From: Gaiellaceae bacterium
Lineage (GTDB): Bacteria; Actinomycetota; Thermoleophilia; Gaiellales; Gaiellaceae
Direction of reading: 5' to 3'
Assembly: GCA_035776735.1 (NCBI GenBank)
Contig: DASSSO010000033.1
Location: 582-64,581 of the forward strand
Length of the DNA stretch: 64,000 nucleotides
Shown here: positions 3,209 through 24,320 of the stretch, in pieces
How positions within the stretch are numbered: position 1 is the first letter of the stretch
Layout of the letters: every line of letters begins with the position of its first letter
Made by a program: the position numbers and the translations under genes
The notes under the pieces: generated by a model
Seen by the model: only the letters and a program-made list of their open reading frames with translations
The model's database searches: none
Told to the model about the DNA's origin: nothing

Positions 3209-6200
3209 CTATACCCGACTCTCCGGGGCCTGAGTCAAGGTCATCGGCAGCTCGAAGACGAAGCACCCACCCTGCCCGCTGTCGGAGTCGACCCAGACGC
3301 GGCCGCCCATCGCGCTCGCGAGGCCGCGGGCGATGAAGAGCCCGAGGCCGGTGCCGCCGGGAGCCTGGCGGGTCGCCTCAGCGCGGTAGAACTTCCGGAA
3401 GATCCGCTCCTGCTCGCTCTGGGGAACGCCGGCGCCCTCGTCGACGACGCGAACCTGCACGGCGTCGTGCGTCCTGCGGGCGGCGACCGTGACCGTCCCG
3501 CCCTGCGGGGAGAACTTGACGGCGTTGTCGACGAGGTTCGCGAGGATCTGCCGCACCTTGTCCCGGTCGGCCGACGCGTCGAGCGGCTCGTCGGGGACCT
3601 CGACGACGAAGCGCCGCGCGTTCGCGAGCTCGCGCTCGGCGCTCTCGACGACGTCGGAGACCACCTCGCGGAGGTCGGTCGGCGCGAACTGGACCTGAAG
3701 GTCGCCGCTCTCGAGGCGCGCGACGCTCAGCAGCGCGTCCACGATCCCGGTCAGGCGCTGCGCCTCCGTGGCGATGTAGCCGAGGAACGTGCGGCGCGCC
3801 TCGTCCTCGAACGCCACGTCCTCCCGCAGGAGCGTCTCGGCGAAGCCGTAGATCGACGTCAGCGGCGCGCGCAGCTCATGCGAGACCGTGGAGACGAAGC
3901 CGGACTTCAGCTGCTCCACGAGGTGATCGGAGGACACGTCCCTGAACGCGTAGATGCGGCCGGCGACCGCCCCGGCGGGATCCCGCATCACGGCCTCGCT
4001 GACCGAGAGCCAGACCTCCTCCCCCCCGCGATGGATCTGGATCAGCCCGCGCCCCTCCGCCGAGGTCTCGTCGGGCTCGAGGCTCCGCTGGAGGACGTCC
4101 GCCGGCGTCCGTCCCATCGCCTCCGCCGCCGGCACGTCCGTGATCTCCTCCGCCGCCGCGTTCCACAGCACGACGCAGCCCTCCCGGTCGACCGCGACGA
4201 TCCCGTCGGCGACGTTGCCGAGAATCGCCACGCTCCGTTCCCGTTCCAGCACGACGCGCTGGTAGAGCTCGGCGTTGGACAGGAACGCGGACACGTTGGC
4301 CGCGAGCGCGGCGAGCGCCTCGACCTCCTCGTCGCGCCAGGAGCGCGCGCCGCGCGCGTACACGGCGAGGACGCCGTGCACGGCTCCCTCCGGGCCGACG
4401 AGCGGGGCGCCGAGATAGGCGGCGTGGCCCGCCTCCAGCAGCGCGTCGGAGCCGCTGAGGATCCCGCCGGCTCGCGCGTCGCCGACCGCCACCGGGCCGC
4501 GGGACTGGACGACCTCCCCCGCGAGCTCCCCAACCGCCGAGACACGGCTGCCGATCGCCGCGTCAGCGCCTTCCCCGTGGGCCGCGCTGACCACGAGCTC
4601 GTCGCCTTCGAGCATGCTCACCGCGGCCGCGTCGGCGCCGACGAGCCCGGGCGCCTGCTCGACGATCTCCTCGAGGATCGCGTCGGGGTCGAGCTCGCTC
4701 GCGAGCAGCGTCCCCGTCCGGGCGAGCTGCTGCGCGATCGCGCGGTTCCGCCGCTCGGCCTCGAAGAGCTCCGCGCGCTCGAGGGCTCCCCGTGCGGCAC
4801 CGGCGAGATGGTGGGCCAGCTCGATCTCGTCGTCGGAGAAGGCCTGTTCCTCGGAGAAGAAGACGAGGCCGATGCCGGTCTGCTCGCGTCTCGGCGCCTC
4901 GACGGGGACCGCGACGAGCGAGCGGAAGCCCATCCCGTCCGCGAGCCCGCGCCAGGCGTCGCCGAAGCGATCGTCCTCGGCGACGTGCGGCGAGGCGAGC
5001 ACGCGCTTGCGGAGGGCCGCGTCATGCAGGGGCTCCGCTCCGCCGACGCCTTTCGCGAGGAACTCGGAGACCGCGGGAGGGAGCTCGTGCGCGCCCGAGA
5101 GCCGCAGCCCGCCGTCGCCGGGCATGAGCACGGCCGCGAAGCTCCCGCCGAGCGCCTCGCTCGCCGCCTGGGCGACGGCGTCGAGGGTCTCGTCCAGGGA
5201 GAGGGGCTGGGCGAGGACGGACGCGATCCGGAAGAACCCTCGCTGGATCCGTACCTGCCGCGCGCTCTGCTCGATGCTCGCCACGTTGCGGAGCGCGACC
5301 GAGCCGAGGTTCGCGAACGCCTCCAACACCTCGACGTCCTCCGCGCTGAAGCGCCGGTCGGGGTCCTTCGTCCCGACGCCGATGACGCCGCGGACCTCGC
5401 CCCACCAGGTCATCGGGGCGACCATCGCGGCGGTGACGCCCTCGTACGCCTCGTGCGGCCTCTCGACCTCGTCGCCGTAGTCGAGTGACACGACCGCCTG
5501 CCGGCGCCGCATCGCCTCGCCCGCGAGCCCGGTCTCGGAGGGGAACTCGAGCTCGATCAGGTTGGCCGGAAGCCCGTACACGGCTGCGCAGCGGAGGACA
5601 CCCCGTCGCGGGTCGAGGAGGTAGCAGTCCGCGGCGTCGGCCTCCAGGAGCTTCGTCACCTCGACCACGAGCCGCTGGAGGACCGCCTCCACCTGGAGCT
5701 CGCTCGTCATCACCTGCGCCGCCTGGACGAGCGCGGCCTGCCGGTCGAGGCGGCGCCGGTTCTCGTCCAGGAGCTGCGCCGTGTGCAGCGCGAGCCCCAC
5801 CTCGCGGGCGACGGCCTCGGCGAGCGACACGTCCGAGGCCGTCCACTCGGTCGTCTCCGCCCGGTGGAGCCCGAAGACGCCGATCACGTCGCCGAAGACC
5901 TCGATCGGCGTCGCGAGCGCCGCCTTCGTCCCGATCTGGAGCAGCGTCTCGACCTGCCCGAGGCTCGGATCCCGCAGCTCGGGATCCTGCGCGACGTCGC
6001 CGGAAACCACCGTCCGGCGCCTTCGAGCGGCGAGGTTCACGACCGGGAGGTTCGGCGCCGCCGTCCCGATCGAATCCACGCCGGGAGCGTCCCACTCGGC
6101 GCGGATCGGCATCGTCCGGCCCGGCTGGCCGAGTCGGATGAAGCAGCGGGCGACGCCGGTGGCCCTGCCCACCTCCTCGACGGCGATGCGGAGCACGGTC

Positions 6201-6940
6201 TCGAGGTCGTGCTCGGAGCGAACGCGCTGGCCGATCTCCGCGACCACGCGCTCGCGGCCGAGCGCCTCCTCGAGCCGCGCCGCGGAACGGGTCTTCTCGA
6301 GCGCGAGCGCCGTCTCGCCCGCGAGCGTCTCCAGCCGCGTCATCTCCTCGGGCGGGAACGCCCGTCGCCGGCTCGTGCTCGCGGCGACGAGCACTGCGAG
6401 TACGCGCGCGCCGGACACGATCGGGACGAACGCGGCGCTCTTGGCGCCGACGCGGTCGGCGAGGCGGCGGTTGACGCGGGGGGAGGACTCGACGTCGAAG
6501 ATCGTCAGCGACGCGGCCTCGAACGCGGCGCTCGCGATCGCCGACGGTTCGTTCTCGAGGTCGATGCGCACCGACGGCCACCAGCCGACGTCCTTGCCGT
6601 CGCTGCTGCGCGCCACGAGGCCGGTCGCCTCCTTCGTGTCGTCGTTGATCTGCGCGACGGCGGTGAACTCGACCCCGAGGAGCGAGGTGACCTCGTCCAG
6701 AAGCGTCTGCGCGACGGCCTCCGCGTCCGTCGCCCGGGCGAGGCCGGCCGACAGCGAGGGCGGCGTCTCGGCCGGCGGCTCCTCCTCCGCCTCCGCGGAA
6801 GTCTCGGGTGTCCCGCGGTTCCGGCGGCGAAGGACGGCAAGGAGCACCGCGGCCGCGACGAGGAGCGCCGCGGCGAGCGCGAGCAGGAGGTAGCCGACGG
6901 CAACCGAGAGAAACGGCTGCGCGGCGATCGTCAGGCACAT
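3209..6940 (-). CDS. membrane-anchored sensor histidine kinase with about five GAF domains, one PAS domain, HisKA and HATPase_c
   Basis: Start ATG 6940 (MCLTIAAQPFLSVAVGYLLLALAAALLVAAAVLLAV is a TM anchor). H-box SHELRAPLTSI, N-box LVDNAVKFSP, G-boxes DEGAGV and GTGLGL. The track ORF continues upstream to 8152, but only as antisense of ispH. Confidence 0.85.
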   Translation of the reverse strand: MCLTIAAQPFLSVAVGYLLLALAAALLVAAAVLLAVLRRRNRGTPETSAEAEEEPPAETPPSLSAGLARATDAEAVAQTLLDEVTSLLGVEFTAVAQINDDTKEATGLVARSSDGKDVGWWPSVRIDLENEPSAIASAAFEAASLTIFDVESSPRVNRRLADRVGAKSAAFVPIVSGARVLAVLVAASTSRRRAFPPEEMTRLETLAGETALALEKTRSAARLEEALGRERVVAEIGQRVRSEHDLETVLRIAVEEVGRATGVARCFIRLGQPGRTMPIRAEWDAPGVDSIGTAAPNLPVVNLAARRRRTVVSGDVAQDPELRDPSLGQVETLLQIGTKAALATPIEVFGDVIGVFGLHRAETTEWTASDVSLAEAVAREVGLALHTAQLLDENRRRLDRQAALVQAAQVMTSELQVEAVLQRLVVEVTKLLEADAADCYLLDPRRGVLRCAAVYGLPANLIELEFPSETGLAGEAMRRRQAVVSLDYGDEVERPHEAYEGVTAAMVAPMTWWGEVRGVIGVGTKDPDRRFSAEDVEVLEAFANLGSVALRNVASIEQSARQVRIQRGFFRIASVLAQPLSLDETLDAVAQAASEALGGSFAAVLMPGDGGLRLSGAHELPPAVSEFLAKGVGGAEPLHDAALRKRVLASPHVAEDDRFGDAWRGLADGMGFRSLVAVPVEAPRREQTGIGLVFFSEEQAFSDDEIELAHHLAGAARGALERAELFEAERRNRAIAQQLARTGTLLASELDPDAILEEIVEQAPGLVGADAAAVSMLEGDELVVSAAHGEGADAAIGSRVSAVGELAGEVVQSRGPVAVGDARAGGILSGSDALLEAGHAAYLGAPLVGPEGAVHGVLAVYARGARSWRDEEVEALAALAANVSAFLSNAELYQRVVLERERSVAILGNVADGIVAVDREGCVVLWNAAAEEITDVPAAEAMGRTPADVLQRSLEPDETSAEGRGLIQIHRGGEEVWLSVSEAVMRDPAGAVAGRIYAFRDVSSDHLVEQLKSGFVSTVSHELRAPLTSIYGFAETLLREDVAFEDEARRTFLGYIATEAQRLTGIVDALLSVARLESGDLQVQFAPTDLREVVSDVVESAERELANARRFVVEVPDEPLDASADRDKVRQILANLVDNAVKFSPQGGTVTVAARRTHDAVQVRVVDEGAGVPQSEQERIFRKFYRAEATRQAPGGTGLGLFIARGLASAMGGRVWVDSDSGQGGCFVFELPMTLTQAPESRV

Positions 6941-7127
6941 GGGCGCCACTGAGCCAGACGGATGATACGGAGCAGCCGTCCGAGAACGAATACGAGGGAG
7001 GCCCGCCGCTCGGGGGGGTCGGTGCGGCGGGCACTCCCCAGTGCTAACCGCGGATCGTGGCCAGGTACGCGCACCGCGGTTCGCGTCGCCCAGTGACGCC
7101 AAGCTACCCCGGCGACCCGTGAATTCC

Positions 7128-7146
7128 AATAGGCCGATCGGCCCAT
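7128..7146. repeat. second copy of the AATAGGCCGATCGGCC motif (AATAGGCCGATCGGCCCAT)
   Basis: 16 of 16 nt are identical to 679-694. In reverse orientation the similarity extends to CAATAGGCCGATCGGCC plus a GAAT-like flank. It lies 32 nt upstream of the ispH ATG, in the divergent kinase/ispH spacer. Confidence 0.75.
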
Positions 7147-7177
7147 CTTTGAAAGCCAGAAACGGTGGCCGGATACC

Positions 7178-8143
7178 ATGGCTCCGATGGTGGAGCGAGT
7201 GCTGCTGGCCTCGCCGCGCGGCTACTGCGCGGGCGTCGAACGGGCTGTCGAGACGGTCGAGCGGCTGCTCGACCTCCACGGGCCCCCGATTTACGTGCGC
7301 AAGCAGATCGTCCACAACCTGCACGTCGTGCGGGACCTCGAGGAGCGGGGCGCGATCTTCGTCGAGAGCGAGACGGAGGTGCCGCCGGGGGCGCGGATCG
7401 TCCTCTCGGCGCACGGCGTCGCCCCGTCCGTCTACGCCAACGCGGGGGAGCGCGGGCTGAAGACGACGGACGCGACCTGCCCCCTGGTGACGAAGGTGCA
7501 CGTCGAGGCCCGGCGCTATGCCGCGGAGGGCTACACGGTCGTGTTGATCGGCCACGCGGGTCACGAGGAGGTGATCGGGACGATGGGCGAGGCGCCCGAG
7601 GCGACCGTCCTCGTCCAGTCGGTCGCGGACGCCGAGGCGCTCCGGCTCGCCGATCCGAACCGGGTCGCCTACATCACGCAGACGACGCTCTCCGTCGACG
7701 AGACGACGGAGATCATCGCCGTGCTCCGGCGGCGCTTCCCCAACATCCGCGCGCCCAAGCGGGACGACATCTGTTACGCCACGTCCAACCGTCAGTGGGC
7801 CGTGAAGGACATGCTCGCCGAGGTCGACCTGCTGCTCGTCATCGGCTCCAGGAACTCGTCCAACTCGAACCGGCTCGTCGAGGTCGCCCGCGCCGGCGGG
7901 GTCGAGTCGCACCTGATCGACGACGAACGCGGCATCGAGCTCCGCTGGCTCGACGGGGTTCGCACCGTCGGGATCACGTCGGGTGCCTCCGCGCCGGAGA
8001 AGCTGGTGGAGCGAGTCTGCGACTGGTTCCGGGCCATGGGCGTGCGGCGCATCGAGCCGTTCCAGTCGGTGCACGAGGACGTCGTGTTCCGCCTCCCCGT
8101 CGAGCTCCGTCGCGAGCTCGCGCTCGCCGAAGCGCAGCGCTAG
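7178..8143 (+). CDS. ispH: 4-hydroxy-3-methylbut-2-enyl diphosphate reductase
   Basis: Full-length IspH/LytB pattern: LASPRGYCAGVERAV, DATCPLVTKVH, HEEV, ICYATSNRQ, GSRNSSNSNRL and ITSGASAPE. Confidence 0.95.
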   Translation: MAPMVERVLLASPRGYCAGVERAVETVERLLDLHGPPIYVRKQIVHNLHVVRDLEERGAIFVESETEVPPGARIVLSAHGVAPSVYANAGERGLKTTDATCPLVTKVHVEARRYAAEGYTVVLIGHAGHEEVIGTMGEAPEATVLVQSVADAEALRLADPNRVAYITQTTLSVDETTEIIAVLRRRFPNIRAPKRDDICYATSNRQWAVKDMLAEVDLLLVIGSRNSSNSNRLVEVARAGGVESHLIDDERGIELRWLDGVRTVGITSGASAPEKLVERVCDWFRAMGVRRIEPFQSVHEDVVFRLPVELRRELALAEAQR

Positions 8144-8146
8144 CGG

Positions 8147-8176
8147 CCGCACGAACCCCGACCTTGTGTTGCATCA
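8147..8176 (-). repeat. left arm of a 30-nt inverted repeat bracketing the 89-aa ORF
   Basis: ccgcacgaaccccgaccttgtgttgcatca. 25 of 30 positions are the reverse complement of 8484-8513, including a 13-nt perfect AT-rich core ttgtgttgcatca. Confidence 0.85.
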
Positions 8177-8443
8177 GAAGAACCGCTGGATGGGGCACAG
8201 GCCGGCGAAGAGATCGCTGACGACCTGGGCCGCCAGCTCGCGGCGCTCCCCGCGCTCGAGCTCGAGCCGGCGTCGCTCGGCGATCAGGTAGCGGCGGACG
8301 AGCCAGTACGTCGGCCTGCCGATGCCGAGCTCCTCCTCGAGCGGGATCAGGCGGCGAAGAGCGTCCGCGTAGCCGATCTCGAAGCGGGCGAGCCCGGCCA
8401 GCGCGGCCTCGTAGTCCGGATGCAAGGCAGGCCAGCGCGGCAC
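8174..8443 (-). CDS. hypothetical 89-aa protein (possible HTH-like segment LGIGRPTYWLVRRYL)
   Basis: GTG start with an in-frame TGA 27 nt upstream. Third-codon positions are almost all G/C, as in neighbouring real genes. I recognise no family. Confidence 0.45.
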   Translation of the reverse strand: MPRWPALHPDYEAALAGLARFEIGYADALRRLIPLEEELGIGRPTYWLVRRYLIAERRRLELERGERRELAAQVVSDLFAGLCPIQRFF

Positions 8444-8483: not shown

Positions 8484-8513
8484 TGATGCAACACAAAGTG
8501 GAACTTCGTGCGG
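8484..8513 (-). repeat. right arm of the 30-nt inverted repeat bracketing the 89-aa ORF
   Basis: tgatgcaacacaaagtggaacttcgtgcgg, the reverse complement partner of 8147-8176. Confidence 0.85.
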
Positions 8514-8521
8514 CTCCGAGC

Positions 8522-8689
8522 TCAGCCGGAGTCAGGACGCGGCTTGCGGCGGTCCTTGCCCGAGCGCCGGTCCTTGCCCGAGCGGCGCTCGCCTTCCTCG
8601 CGCCGCCGCGACTCCTTGCGCCGATCCTCGCCGCTCCGTCGGTCCTTTCCGGAGCGGCGGTCGCCTTCGTAGCGGCCCATGCCGCTCAT
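8522..8689 (-). CDS. unannotated 55-aa Arg/Asp/Gly-rich repeat protein (MSGMGRYEGDRRSGKDRRSGEDRRKESRRREEGERRSGKDRRSGKDRRKPRPDSG)
   Basis: Below the track's size cutoff. The first ATG lies 4 nt after the ileS TAG (TAGGAGAATG). A second ATG at 8680 sits 9 nt after GGAGA. Third-codon GC is high, and there are three DRRSGKD-type repeats from an 18-nt tandem unit. Confidence 0.35.
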   Translation of the reverse strand: MSGMGRYEGDRRSGKDRRSGEDRRKESRRREEGERRSGKDRRSGKDRRKPRPDSG

Positions 8690-13471: not shown

Positions 13472-13490
13472 GGATCGCAACAATAGGGCC

Positions 13491-13625
13491 GTGCACGAGG
13501 ATCCAGCACCCACACCCGAGGAGCAGGAGCAGGTGCCCGAGCGGCTGCCCGAGGCGCAGGCGGCGGAAGGCGCCGGCCACGAGGACGACGAGCTCCCCGG
13601 CGACGAGGCGACCGCCGAGTCGTGA
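13491..13625 (+). CDS. possible 44-aa acidic/proline-rich peptide
   Basis: GTG start. Its TGA stop overlaps the GTG of the downstream cNMP-binding gene (GTGA). Third-codon GC is high. No homology recognised. Confidence 0.25.
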   Translation: MHEDPAPTPEEQEQVPERLPEAQAAEGAGHEDDELPGDEATAES

Positions 13626-13990
13626 GACACGTCCCGGCCTCCGTGACGGAGCTGTCGCGGATCGGCCTCCTGGCGGAGCTGCCGGGCGAGCAGCTCACGA
13701 AGCTCGCCCACAGGATGCGGCGGGAAGAGGTCGGCCCCGGGAAGCCGCTCCTCCGGGAGGGCGACGACGGTGACCGCTTCTACGTGATCCTGAACGGGCT
13801 CTTCTCGGTGACCCAGGAGCAGCGCGGGCTGCGCCGGATCCTCAAGCCGGGCGACTACTTCGGCGAGGTGGCGCTGACGATGGACCTCCCGCGGACCGCG
13901 TCCGTCTCGCCGATGACGCTCGCGACCGTCGCCAGTTGCGACCGCGAGACGTTCGACGAGTTCATCCGGCCGCTGTTCGCCGACGGCTAG
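13622..13990 (+). CDS. stand-alone cyclic-nucleotide-binding domain protein
   Basis: REGDDGDRFYVILNG...GDYFGEVAL...PRTASV is the canonical cNMP-binding beta-barrel and phosphate-binding cassette. 122 aa with no output domain. Confidence 0.7.
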   Translation: MRHVPASVTELSRIGLLAELPGEQLTKLAHRMRREEVGPGKPLLREGDDGDRFYVILNGLFSVTQEQRGLRRILKPGDYFGEVALTMDLPRTASVSPMTLATVASCDRETFDEFIRPLFADG

Positions 13991-22359: not shown

Positions 22360-22830
22360 GTGCTGGCGGCCGGCGACCGCATTCCCGACGTGCAGGTGTG
22401 GCTCGCGCCCAGAGAGGGCGTCTCGCTTCACGACCTCGTCTCCGAGGGCCCGATCCTCCTCCTCTTCTACCTCTTCGACTGGTCGGGCACCTGAACGAAC
22501 GAGATGGAGCTCCTGCGTGACAGGAGCCGGGAGTTCGAGGAGGCGGGAGTCCGGATCATGGCGGCGTCGCGCGACTCCGCCTGGTCGCACGTGGCCTGGA
22601 TCCAGGCGCTCGACCTGACCTTCCCGCTGCTCTCGGACTGGAACGGCGACGCGGTTCGCGGCTTCGGGGTCGCGCAGGACTACCGGGGGATGAGCGACGT
22701 CGCCCAGCGGTCCGCGTTCCTCGTCGACACCGGCGGTACGGTCCGCGGCGCATGGGCCTACGAGGACGGCGACGTTCCGGACGTGGACGAGCTGCTCGCG
22801 GCCGCGCGGGCCTTGTCGGCCTCGTCCTAG
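22360..22830 (+). CDS. Bcp/AhpC-TSA-type peroxiredoxin with in-frame UGA (22492-22494) at the peroxidatic Cys position; probable selenocysteine
   Basis: Track ORFs 22015..22494 and 22504..22830 share one frame. The joined product is ...PILLLFYLFDWSGT-U-TNEMELLRDRSREFEEAGVRIMAASRDSAWSHVAWIQALDLTFPLLSDWNGDAVRGFGV...RSAFLVDTGGTVR, a full Prx fold signature. GTG 22360 is a tentative start. Confidence 0.6.
22496..22537 (+). promoter_or_regulatory. candidate bacterial SECIS hairpin downstream of UGA 22492-22494
   Basis: Lower stem cgaac (22496-22500)/gttcg (22533-22537). Upper stem gctcctg (22509-22515)/caggagc (22521-22527). Apical loop CGUGA starts 21 nt after the UGA and contains GU. Confidence 0.45.
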
Positions 22831-24320
22831 TCCTCTACCTCGGCGCCGGCCTCGTCTCGACGTGGCCCGCGCTCCGCGACGCGCGCGCGGACTTCCTCGC
22901 GGAGGGGTTGCCCGGGCGTCCAGGGGCGGCGCAGCCCGGCGACCACCTGCAGACGGCCTGGCAGCTCTGGCTTCCCGGGCACCAGCTCCGGCGAGGAGAA
23001 GCGCCGTGGCTCGACCCGTACAGCTTCCAGCCCCAGGTCGACCCGCGGGTCAACTTCGCCGGCTGGCCGTTCGGCGCCGTCTTCGGGCCGCTGAAGGGCC
23101 TGCTCGGCGTGGTCGCCGCCTGGAACGTCTTCGTGCTGCTCGGCTACCTCGGCTGCGGCGCGCTGGCGTTCCTGTGGCTGCGCTCGATCGGGCTCGGCGT
23201 CGGGGCGGCGCTCGTGGGAGGTCTCGTCTTCGCGCTCGCGCCGTACCGTGCCGTGCAGGCGGGCGCCGGCCACCTCCTCGCCTGGATCTCGATGTTCCTG
23301 CCGCTCTCGCTCTGGGCCTGGGAGCGGCGCTGGTACTGGCTCACCGCAGCGGCTCTCGCGTCGATTCCGCTGTCGGGCCAGGTGCATCTCGCCCTCGGCG
23401 CGATTCCGTTCGTCACCGCGTACGCGCTGTTGCGGGGCGGCGACCGGCGCTGGGCCGGCGGGGCGGCGGCCGGCGCCGTCGGCGCCGGTCTCTTGGTCTG
23501 GGCGCTCTCGATCCGGGGCTCGATCGGGACCTCCCGCTCCTTCGCCTCGGTCGAGCGCTACTCGGCCGAGCTCGCGGACTTCGTCTCGCGCGACCCGCGC
23601 CACGGCCTCGAGCCGTTCGTCTTCGTCGGCTGGCTCGTGCCGCTCCTGGCGCTCCTGGGGCTTGTGTTTCATGTGACGAGGCTCACCGTCTTCCTCGCCT
23701 GCTCGGCGCTCGCCGCCTGCCTCCTGGCGCTCGGAGCCAATCTTCCGGGCTACGAGACGGCGTGGGAGGCCCTGCCCGGGCTGGGGAGCACCCGCGTCCC
23801 GGGGAGGCTGATGCCGATCGCCTGCCTGGCGATCGCCGCCCTTGCCGCGTTCGGCGCGCAGGAAACGGCTCGTCACATGAAACACAAGCTCGCGGGGGCC
23901 GCCGTCGCCGCAGTGGTGCTCGCGCTCGTCGCGATCGACCTGCGGATCGATGTGACCGCCTACCGGCCGACGGCCGCGGACGAGGGGAACCGGGCCTACG
24001 CGGCACTCGGGCAGCAGGGCGGCGGCCGACTGCTCGAGATGCCGGTGCACACGCCGGACCGCCACGAGGGGAGCGTCTACCTCTACTACGCGATGCAGGC
24101 GCCGCGCGAGCGCCCGGCCGGCTACTCGACCGTCGCACCGAGGGAGGCGGCCCGCGTCCTACGCGAGCTGCAGCCCTGCGCGGACGCGCGGCATCTCGCC
24201 GAGCTCGGCGTCCGGTACCTCGCCGTCCACGGACGCCCGCGCTGCGGCGTCGGCGGCCGGCTGCTCGCCCGCGACGGGCCCGTCGCGCTCTACGAGGCCT
24301 ACATCCCCGTAGGCTGGTAG
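22752..24320 (+). CDS. large polytopic membrane protein (possibly GT-C-like glycosyltransferase; function unknown)
   Basis: More than 10 hydrophobic segments. ATG 22752 is the only canonical start before the first TM segment, giving a 79-nt overlap with the peroxiredoxin gene. The family assignment is only a guess from architecture. Confidence 0.6.
   Translation: MGLRGRRRSGRGRAARGRAGLVGLVLVLYLGAGLVSTWPALRDARADFLAEGLPGRPGAAQPGDHLQTAWQLWLPGHQLRRGEAPWLDPYSFQPQVDPRVNFAGWPFGAVFGPLKGLLGVVAAWNVFVLLGYLGCGALAFLWLRSIGLGVGAALVGGLVFALAPYRAVQAGAGHLLAWISMFLPLSLWAWERRWYWLTAAALASIPLSGQVHLALGAIPFVTAYALLRGGDRRWAGGAAAGAVGAGLLVWALSIRGSIGTSRSFASVERYSAELADFVSRDPRHGLEPFVFVGWLVPLLALLGLVFHVTRLTVFLACSALAACLLALGANLPGYETAWEALPGLGSTRVPGRLMPIACLAIAALAAFGAQETARHMKHKLAGAAVAAVVLALVAIDLRIDVTAYRPTAADEGNRAYAALGQQGGGRLLEMPVHTPDRHEGSVYLYYAMQAPRERPAGYSTVAPREAARVLRELQPCADARHLAELGVRYLAVHGRPRCGVGGRLLARDGPVALYEAYIPVGW
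23660..23680. repeat. left arm of a perfect 21-bp inverted repeat inside the membrane-protein CDS
   Basis: gcttgtgtttcatgtgacgag, markedly AT-richer than its surroundings. Exact reverse complement of 23869-23889. Confidence 0.9.
23869..23889. repeat. right arm of the perfect 21-bp inverted repeat
   Basis: ctcgtcacatgaaacacaagc. A 188-nt spacer separates it from the left arm. Confidence 0.9.

Follow-up and report, generated by a model that had tools for sequence, protein, structure and literature searches.

Why would a gene for a membrane protein carry two A/T-rich stretches of 21 nucleotides (nt) that are exact reverse complements of each other, and what has kept them complementary? The question is raised by a locus in the genome of a bacterium from the Gaiellaceae, a family of soil actinobacteria, which we analyzed within a stretch of 64,000 nt of contig DASSSO010000033.1 (assembly GCA_035776735.1), referred to here as the window. 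A sequence-only reading of this DNA had interpreted the repeat as a candidate intragenic inverton, a segment whose inversion would recode the protein. We find that the repeat is real and ancient, that it is under purifying selection at the nucleotide level and that it is maintained by compensatory change. As to its role, we tentatively favor a conserved cis-element that would act by pairing of one arm with the other, most likely in the transcript, with a trans-acting factor reading the core of the motif, a reading that we regard as possible while still short of probable. The gene and the repeat consist of the following parts.

22752 to 24320, plus strand: host open reading frame (ORF) of 522 amino acids (aa), encoding a polytopic membrane protein with a predicted GT-C glycosyltransferase-like fold, Gaiellaceae.
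23660 to 23680, plus strand: arm 1, GCTTGTGTTTCATGTGACGAG, encoding (L)VFHVT(R), residues 303-310, in a turn between predicted helices 295-306 and 310-328.
23681 to 23868, plus strand: inter-arm segment of 188 nt, encoding a transmembrane helix, a conserved loop and a second transmembrane helix.
23869 to 23889, plus strand: arm 2, CTCGTCACATGAAACACAAGC, encoding RHMKHK, residues 373-380, in a turn between predicted helices 350-375 and 379-399.

Across the spacing of 188 nt, CTCGTCACATGAAACACAAGC is the exact reverse complement of GCTTGTGTTTCATGTGACGAG, the complementarity comes to a sharp end on either side of the arms, and no target-site duplication was found at the arm ends. Both arms lie within the host coding sequence and have a G+C content of 48%, compared with ~72% for the window. 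In all of these respects the sequence-only reading had described the repeat correctly. When the 21-mer was searched for with up to three mismatches, only the two arm sites were recovered in the window (none in shuffled sequences, with zero expected), and no perfect inverted repeat with partners within 2 kb is longer anywhere in the window. In 100 first-order Markov sequences of 64 kb with the same dinucleotide content the maximum was 14-18 nt, and a perfect 21-nt pair is expected analytically ~1e-3 times per window. The mismatch pattern search and the simulation together rule out a chance origin of the arm pair.

Comparison with orthologues, which the sequence-only reading had named as a check, bears out the conservation of the arms. 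Among 160 homologous loci, 80 from genomes and 80 from metagenomes, ~40 have inverted repeats at the two corresponding positions of the gene and ~120 have no arms. The arm-bearing loci fall into clades that differ in the sequence and the extent of the complementary sites.

Clade a, the window, L001-L004 and L015: CTTGTGTT(C/T)CATGTGACGAG (CTTGTGTTCCATGTGACGAG), 20-21 nt complementary.
Clade b, L005, L007, L010, L016 and L098: TTGTGTTGCATCACC, 12-17 nt complementary.
Clade c, more than 20 genomes whose proteins are ~55% identical to that of the window: GCTTGTGTTTCAGAAACACAA, 21 nt complementary.
Clade d, L123 and L150: GCTTGTGTTG-NTT-CAACACAAGC, 10+10 nt around a 3-nt center.
Clade e, L146: GCTTGTGTCT-ATC-AGACACAAGC, 10+10 nt around a 3-nt center.

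Only the motif core, CTTGTGT/ACACAAG, is constant across the clades, and the remainder is clade-specific yet complementary from site to site. In clades c, d and e the individual site is palindromic and folds into a hairpin of 10 bp with a loop of 3 nt (-10.9 to -13.6 kcal/mol), and positions 9-10 of its stem co-vary (TT/AA, TG/CA, CT/AG). The arms of clades a and b are not palindromic, show no significant local hairpin and are complementary from site to site only; complementarity between the sites is therefore the one property common to all variants. In a neighbor-joining tree of the N-terminal 200 residues, the arm-bearing lineages form two neighboring groups with decay in several sublineages, and 74 basal taxa are without arms, a pattern most simply explained by a single gain and several later losses. 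Two metagenome relatives (L093:1073-1100 and L115:1153-1180) have a nearly intact arm 1, CTTTTGTTTCATGTGACGAG, with the peptide LLFHVTR, and unrelated A/T-rich sequence in place of arm 2.

Evidence that the two sites change together came from an anchored alignment of 28 distinct arm pairs with 23 column pairs. Watson-Crick or G-U pairs occupied 82.9% of cells, compared with 31-47% when the partner columns were slid by 1-3 positions, and 15 of the 23 column pairs showed double-sided changes. The covariation score was 0.32, compared with 0.13 in shuffles, and none of 500 shuffles reached this value. The paired positions thus display the compensatory covariation of a generic conserved RNA helix. 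Between the window and its closest relatives the cost of this upkeep to the protein is visible in a single codon pair, where TTT in arm 1 and AAA in arm 2 of the window correspond to TTC and GAA in L001-L004 and L015: the change is synonymous in arm 1 and turns Lys into Glu in arm 2.

Further evidence comes from how the sites are translated. Within single genes of clade c the 21-23-mer is translated in two frames, as CLCFRNT and ACVSETQ, and L146 contains an identical 23-nt palindrome, GCTTGTGTCTATCAGACACAAGC, twice in one gene (1112-1134 and 1324-1346), read as LCLSDTS and as ACVYQTQ; in the window the shared core is read in a third frame, as LVFHVT. Among 22 distinct clade-c sequences with a mean nucleotide identity of 80%, third codon positions were conserved at 96% inside the sites and at 75% outside, and the consensus G+C content at third codon positions was 31% inside and 97% outside. 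Synonymous positions inside the clade-c sites are frozen at rare A/T-ending codons, and the only position that varies freely is the center of site 2 (TCA or TCT). As judged from these sequence comparisons, selection acts on the nucleotides and not on the peptides.

These data bear on a reading that needs no function, in which short palindromic elements were inserted long ago at the two loop-coding positions and at the small-gene locus described below, and template switching or gene-conversion correction between nearby inverted copies has preserved their similarity with no selection for function. We consider such a relic very unlikely. At the sites, proteins with arms exceed their arm-less homologues in length, by 8 aa at site 2 in the clade of the window and by 8 aa at site 1 in clade c (residues counted manually on aligned sequences), and the trait is patchy, with decay in several sublineages, as would be expected of a relic. 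Against this, rare A/T-ending codons are held at synonymous positions in 22 divergent genomes, the sites are retained across clades with protein identities of only ~55%, and neither a high-copy repeat family in these genomes nor a target-site duplication was found.

The host protein matched no family in Pfam or NCBIfam. It has more than 2,300 homologues, and those that are named all come from Gaiellaceae or from metagenome-assembled genomes of Actinomycetota. An AlphaFold model of modest quality (predicted local distance difference test, pLDDT, 63) had GT-C glycosyltransferases, among them STT3, AftD, ArnT, PglB and AglB, as its Foldseek neighbors (E 1e-4 to 1e-2, probability 0.97-1.0), and we treat the protein as GT-C-like with the reserve that such a model demands. 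Both arms encode short turns between predicted helices and bound a helix-loop-helix unit whose loop has the motif LALGANLPGYE..W..PGLGSTRVPGR. At its 5' end the long form of the glycosyltransferase-like ORF (22752-24320) is overlapped by 79 nt by an AhpC/TSA-like ORF (22504-22830), and gene callers often place the start of the relatives' genes ~70 codons later; the predicted N-terminal helix (residues 11-48) is nevertheless conserved in many homologues.

The 188-nt segment between the arms is among the best-conserved regions of the protein and is found in every homologue, with or without arms. This decides a further alternative from the sequence-only reading, according to which the arms are the termini of an old insertion, similar to a miniature inverted-repeat transposable element (MITE), that supplied the segment. 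Short terminal inverted repeats around ~190 bp would fit the geometry of such an element. The idea is nonetheless refuted because the segment, the most conserved part of this region, is present in 160 of 160 homologues, including the ~120 that are arm-less; with no target-site duplication and no dispersed copies either, we give it next to no credence.

The motif also occurs at a second locus, ~15 kb upstream of the host gene and between ispH and ileS, where it brackets a small gene.

8134 to 8176, no strand assigned: arm A, with the perfect core CTTGTGTTGCATCA at 8163-8176, overlapping the 3' end of ispH and, on the minus strand, the small gene's stop codon.
8174 to 8443, minus strand: small gene of 89 aa, conserved, found in Gaiellaceae and bracketed by arms A and B.
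8484 to 8526, no strand assigned: arm B, with the perfect core TGATGCAACACAA at 8484-8496, ~42 nt upstream of the small-gene start.

Over 43 nt, arms A and B show 77% complementarity, with 307 nt between them, and the small gene together with both arm cores is conserved in 7 related loci. The 13-mer TTGTGTTGCATCA is used both at the small-gene locus and, in other genomes, as the clade-b arm sequence of the glycosyltransferase gene. The window contains four TTGTGTT heptamers, all of them arms of the two pairs, and 549 kb of flanking sequence from relatives contains one stray copy. No further motif pairs were found within 10 kb on either side of the gene in two relatives, a search for a phage or mobile-element source of the motif had 0 matches in viral contigs, and a literature search for it returned unrelated primer sequences only. 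The 89-aa protein is predicted to be all-helical, with three helices of which the C-terminal one is long (pLDDT 80). It had no match in Pfam or among PDB sequences and no significant match in Foldseek, where the best hits were helix-turn-helix domains of transposases bound to terminal-repeat DNA (E ~1). A profile search recovered 65 representative clusters of the family, nearly all stand-alone proteins of ~55-195 aa, and no catalytic fusion was found among them. A DNA-binding or transposase link of this protein might be considered on the strength of the structural model, as a lead and not as a result.

Such a pair of loci could also reflect paired sites on double-stranded DNA, with one protein binding CTTGTGT at both arms and bridging them, so as to loop or roadblock the gene. 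We hold this to be rather unlikely, with the 89-aa protein as the candidate binder, which would then be autoregulatory, its own gene being bracketed by the motif. The restriction of TTGTGTT to the arms in the window, its near-absence from 549 kb of relatives and the use of TTGTGTTGCATCA at both the small-gene locus and the clade-b glycosyltransferase gene all speak for sites of this kind, as do the 9-1-9 palindromes of clade c, whose unconstrained center resembles that of dimer operators. The candidate binder is conserved and has three predicted helices with a long C-terminal one, and its nearest, non-significant structures are those of the transposase domains. What such binding would not predict is that the two arms share the same lineage-specific inner 12 nt, which nonetheless differ between two loci of one genome, that symmetric positions co-vary rather than stay conserved, or that the clade a and b arms are non-palindromic; and a DNA-binding role of the 89-aa protein, with no match in Pfam or PDB sequences and none of significance in Foldseek, is putative.

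Two ORFs adjoin the second locus. A 55-aa ORF on the minus strand (8522-8689), between ileS and the small gene, contains repeats of the DRRSGK/DRRSGE type, and in L081 a gene of 53 aa is called at the same place. On the other side, a mechanically called ORF of 1647 aa on the minus strand (3209-8152) corresponds to a multi-GAF sensor kinase, for which the relatives' proteins measure 1237-1263 aa; the N-terminal part as called lies antisense across ispH (7178-8143), and the true start therefore lies further downstream.

Among the readings, the one that covers most of the observations is the one that we tentatively favor, a cis-element acting through arm-to-arm pairing together with a trans-acting factor. 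The arms would be selected as exact complements of each other, forming a duplex of ~21 bp that would close the 188-nt segment, one transmembrane helical hairpin of the GT-C-type gene, into a stem-loop. The duplex would most likely form in mRNA and less likely in transiently single-stranded DNA. Its CUUGUGU:ACACAAG core may be recognized by a trans-acting factor, for example a double-strand-specific nuclease or a binding protein, and the outcome would be post-transcriptional control of the glycosyltransferase gene, with the same element bracketing the small gene 15 kb upstream. In the minimum-free-energy fold of the window segment the arm-arm helix is the closing stem on the coding strand (z = -7.3), and at both loci each arm pair lies within a single transcription unit.

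Several observations weigh against pairing in RNA, beginning with the fact that arm pairing, RNA as its place and a regulatory outcome through processing or decay are all steps that we infer. Mismatched cells on the coding strand comprised 7 G-U and 16 A-C, with no G-U excess, so that the strand-specific G-U tolerance of an RNA helix is not seen, and one-sided changes were rare (8 cells, compared with 87 double-sided). Strict identity at the DNA level fits this pattern of change at least as well as RNA pairing does. Pairing alone would also leave unexplained why CTTGTGT is conserved at two unrelated loci and why the helix is A/T-rich in a genome of 72% G+C. In addition, the center of the long-range duplex would be an A-A mismatch in most clade-c genomes, an intragenic helix would be unwound by ribosomes, and the single-armed loci L093 and L115 indicate that an unpaired arm can persist. 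Rfam 15 at the gathering score found nothing besides one tRNA in the window; at E <= 1 there was no match at the first locus, and the second had only a chance snoRNA match (snoZ206, E 0.34). The scarcity of G-U and half-compensated pairs, the A/U-rich conserved core and the lack of an Rfam match therefore leave room for a DNA-level mechanism, with recombination, double-stranded DNA binding and a single-stranded DNA stem as the options.

Of these DNA-level mechanisms, recombination is the one first proposed for the locus. A trans-acting site-specific recombinase would recognize the CTTGTGT core and flip the 188-nt segment, replacing the two-helix hairpin with a hydrophilic stretch or a stop and producing a phase-varied envelope glycosyltransferase, while strand exchange would keep the arms identical. 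We consider this unlikely. The arm length of 21 bp and the spacing of 188 bp look typical for invertons. The arms match perfectly, end sharply and lie wholly inside one coding sequence (22752-24320), and they co-vary by strict Watson-Crick rules, half-compensated pairs being almost absent. A conserved core beside a lineage-specific part that is identical in both sites has the look of recombinase sites of the lox, FRT or dif type, and a core common to two loci of one genome is as in master-invertase regulons. Because the two turns that contain the arms face the same side of the membrane, topology would moreover survive a flip. To our knowledge, however, the identical lineage-specific part (12-13 nt) exceeds any known crossover region. 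Site polarity, which is fixed and inverted in the clade of the window, does not seem conserved in clade c, because the asymmetric central base is mostly A/A and in five cases A/T; this is a poor fit to a directional inversion site, and a symmetric, palindromic site would also permit deletion.

Direct searches for a flipped form were likewise negative. We defined its junctions as GCTTGTGTTTCATGTGACGAG joined to CCGTTTCCTGCGCGCC and GGAAGACGGTGAGC joined to CTCGTCACATGAAACACAAGC. The inter-arm segment was present and in sense orientation in 161 of 161 loci (the 160 homologous loci and the window), and colinearity by tblastn detected no inverted segment in any of these assemblies. A profile (A2) of 41 antisense-core peptides identified no inverted-core chimeric protein among 5.8 billion proteins. 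Its sole match, P0121, comes from a short contig and consists of a 108-aa antisense ORF lacking sense flanks, and it was rejected as a flipped allele; its adaptor-like N-terminal sequence, ...PFPYTTLFRS, we take to be an artefact of sequencing or assembly that recurs. With a gapped DNA pattern describing the inverted arrangement there were 0 matches in 241 million metagenome records, a collection that includes at least 349 relatives, and the corresponding sense pattern, used as a control, matched 21 of 80 genome loci. Among ~45 ORFs, which together span most of the window, none had a recombinase or transposase domain; the sequence-only reading had likewise noted no recombinase gene. The identifiable genes are all housekeeping genes.

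The flipped frame itself argues in the same direction. The earlier translation of the inverted form was correct and is stop-free in the window, and the frame preservation that had been counted as weak support carries no weight, because a codon-aligned antisense frame is open for 412 codons (22827-24065), far past the arms. In relatives the flipped frame contains stops (L004, L015, L076 and most clade-c genomes), and the recoding is therefore not conserved. From the sequences searched, flipping of the inter-arm DNA has gained no support. In the work by Chanin et al. (PMC10028968), which includes an example of 57 bp, intragenic invertons usually appear as minority flipped fractions that are hidden in consensus assemblies, and on that account assemblies such as those examined here would not reveal low-level flipping. 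What stands of the original interpretation is thus a non-random, functional-looking repeat; what gained no support is the recoding inverton, for which neither a flipped allele nor a conserved recoded frame was found. Among the readings now favored are two of the alternatives listed at the time, namely an mRNA helix formed over long range and paired protein-binding sites.

Taken together, the two loci lead us to a provisional picture, which we put forward with some reserve, of a hitherto undescribed cis-element system in Gaiellaceae in which ~21-nt complementary CTTGTGT/ACACAAG pairs bracket functional units and have been maintained by compensatory change through the history of the family, as an inversion switch or an RNA helix. 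The bracketed units would be a transmembrane hairpin in a GT-C glycosyltransferase gene and the gene of a small helical protein, and the system could take either of two forms, a conserved programmed inversion switch or a new intragenic RNA-processing or closing helix with a dedicated factor. Conserved signals at the nucleotide level within coding sequence come to light only rarely, since protein conservation masks them; in this case, two or three reading frames, rare codons at 72% G+C and change by paired substitutions alone make the signal unmistakable. If the arms pair in mRNA, this little-studied actinobacterial family, most of whose members are uncultured, would possess a new regulatory helix inside a gene, by which RNA structure or processing would be linked to how an envelope glycosyltransferase is expressed. 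Should the segment flip, it would be the first case of an intragenic inverton with conservation demonstrated across family-level divergence, and the core motif would offer a route to its recombinase. Either way, the two loci provide precise, testable sites.

Elsewhere in the window, the tRNA gene that is its sole Rfam match at the gathering score lies on the minus strand at 1129-1202. A short plus-strand ORF at 13487-13987 encodes a cyclic-nucleotide-binding domain and may represent a CRP/FNR-type regulator, whole or fragmentary; no connection with the arms was established.

Finally, we compared the element with known systems and find that it fits none of the families considered in full. The parS consensus is a 16-bp palindrome, TGTTNCACGTGAAACA; the window arm TGTTTCATGTGACGAG agrees with it at 11 of 16 positions and is not palindromic, and the clade-c sites are short of the 3 central bp, so that a parS/ParB site was rejected and is kept as a lead only. 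None of the other operator consensuses considered (Rex, CRP/GlxR, matS, GlnR and Fur-type 9-1-9 boxes) fits. A promoter or leaderless start at the ATG-NAA-CAC-AAG face of the arms was also rejected, with no -10 element present and no ATG in clade c.

Rickettsia palindromic elements are dispersed repeats of 100-150 bp that are inserted in frame into genes. Like them, the units described here are palindromic in some clades, translated, tolerated in loops and read in different frames; unlike them, they measure 21-23 nt, are confined to two fixed positions in a single gene family and experience purifying selection on their synonymous sites. Nor do they show the duplication or dispersal of such elements or of MITEs, given 4 arm copies in 64 kb and one stray heptamer in 549 kb. 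Repetitive extragenic palindromic (REP) sequences, REPINs and their RAYT transposases form another class, in which short palindromic units occur in inverted pairs, hundreds per genome, and two of them flank a gene. Hairpin-forming units in inverted pairs and a gene between two inverted copies are found here as well. The present units differ in numbering four per 64 kb, with one pair intragenic, and the flanked protein, all-helical and 89 aa long, has no HUH/Y1 transposase features, Pfam match or significant structural match.

With intragenic invertons, as described by Chanin et al. (PMC10028968), the locus has in common short inverted repeats that lie wholly in a coding sequence and flank a few hundred bp, a predicted flip that leads to recoding or a premature stop, and no requirement for an adjacent invertase. 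It departs from them in that no assembly or predicted protein shows the flipped orientation, the sites are conserved and co-vary across a family, one clade has palindromic sites without fixed polarity, and the recoded frame is unconserved. A last comparison is with the RNase III stalks of Escherichia coli, the long-range processing stems that flank 16S and 23S rRNA. Unlike these stalks, one of the pairs described here lies inside a translated frame, the arms are A/U-rich with a conserved core and tolerate little G-U pairing, and cleavage is hypothetical. As in the stalks, distant complementary stretches of about two helical turns would close a long loop, compensatory change keeps the helix, and at the second locus the arms bracket an entire small gene downstream of ileS.

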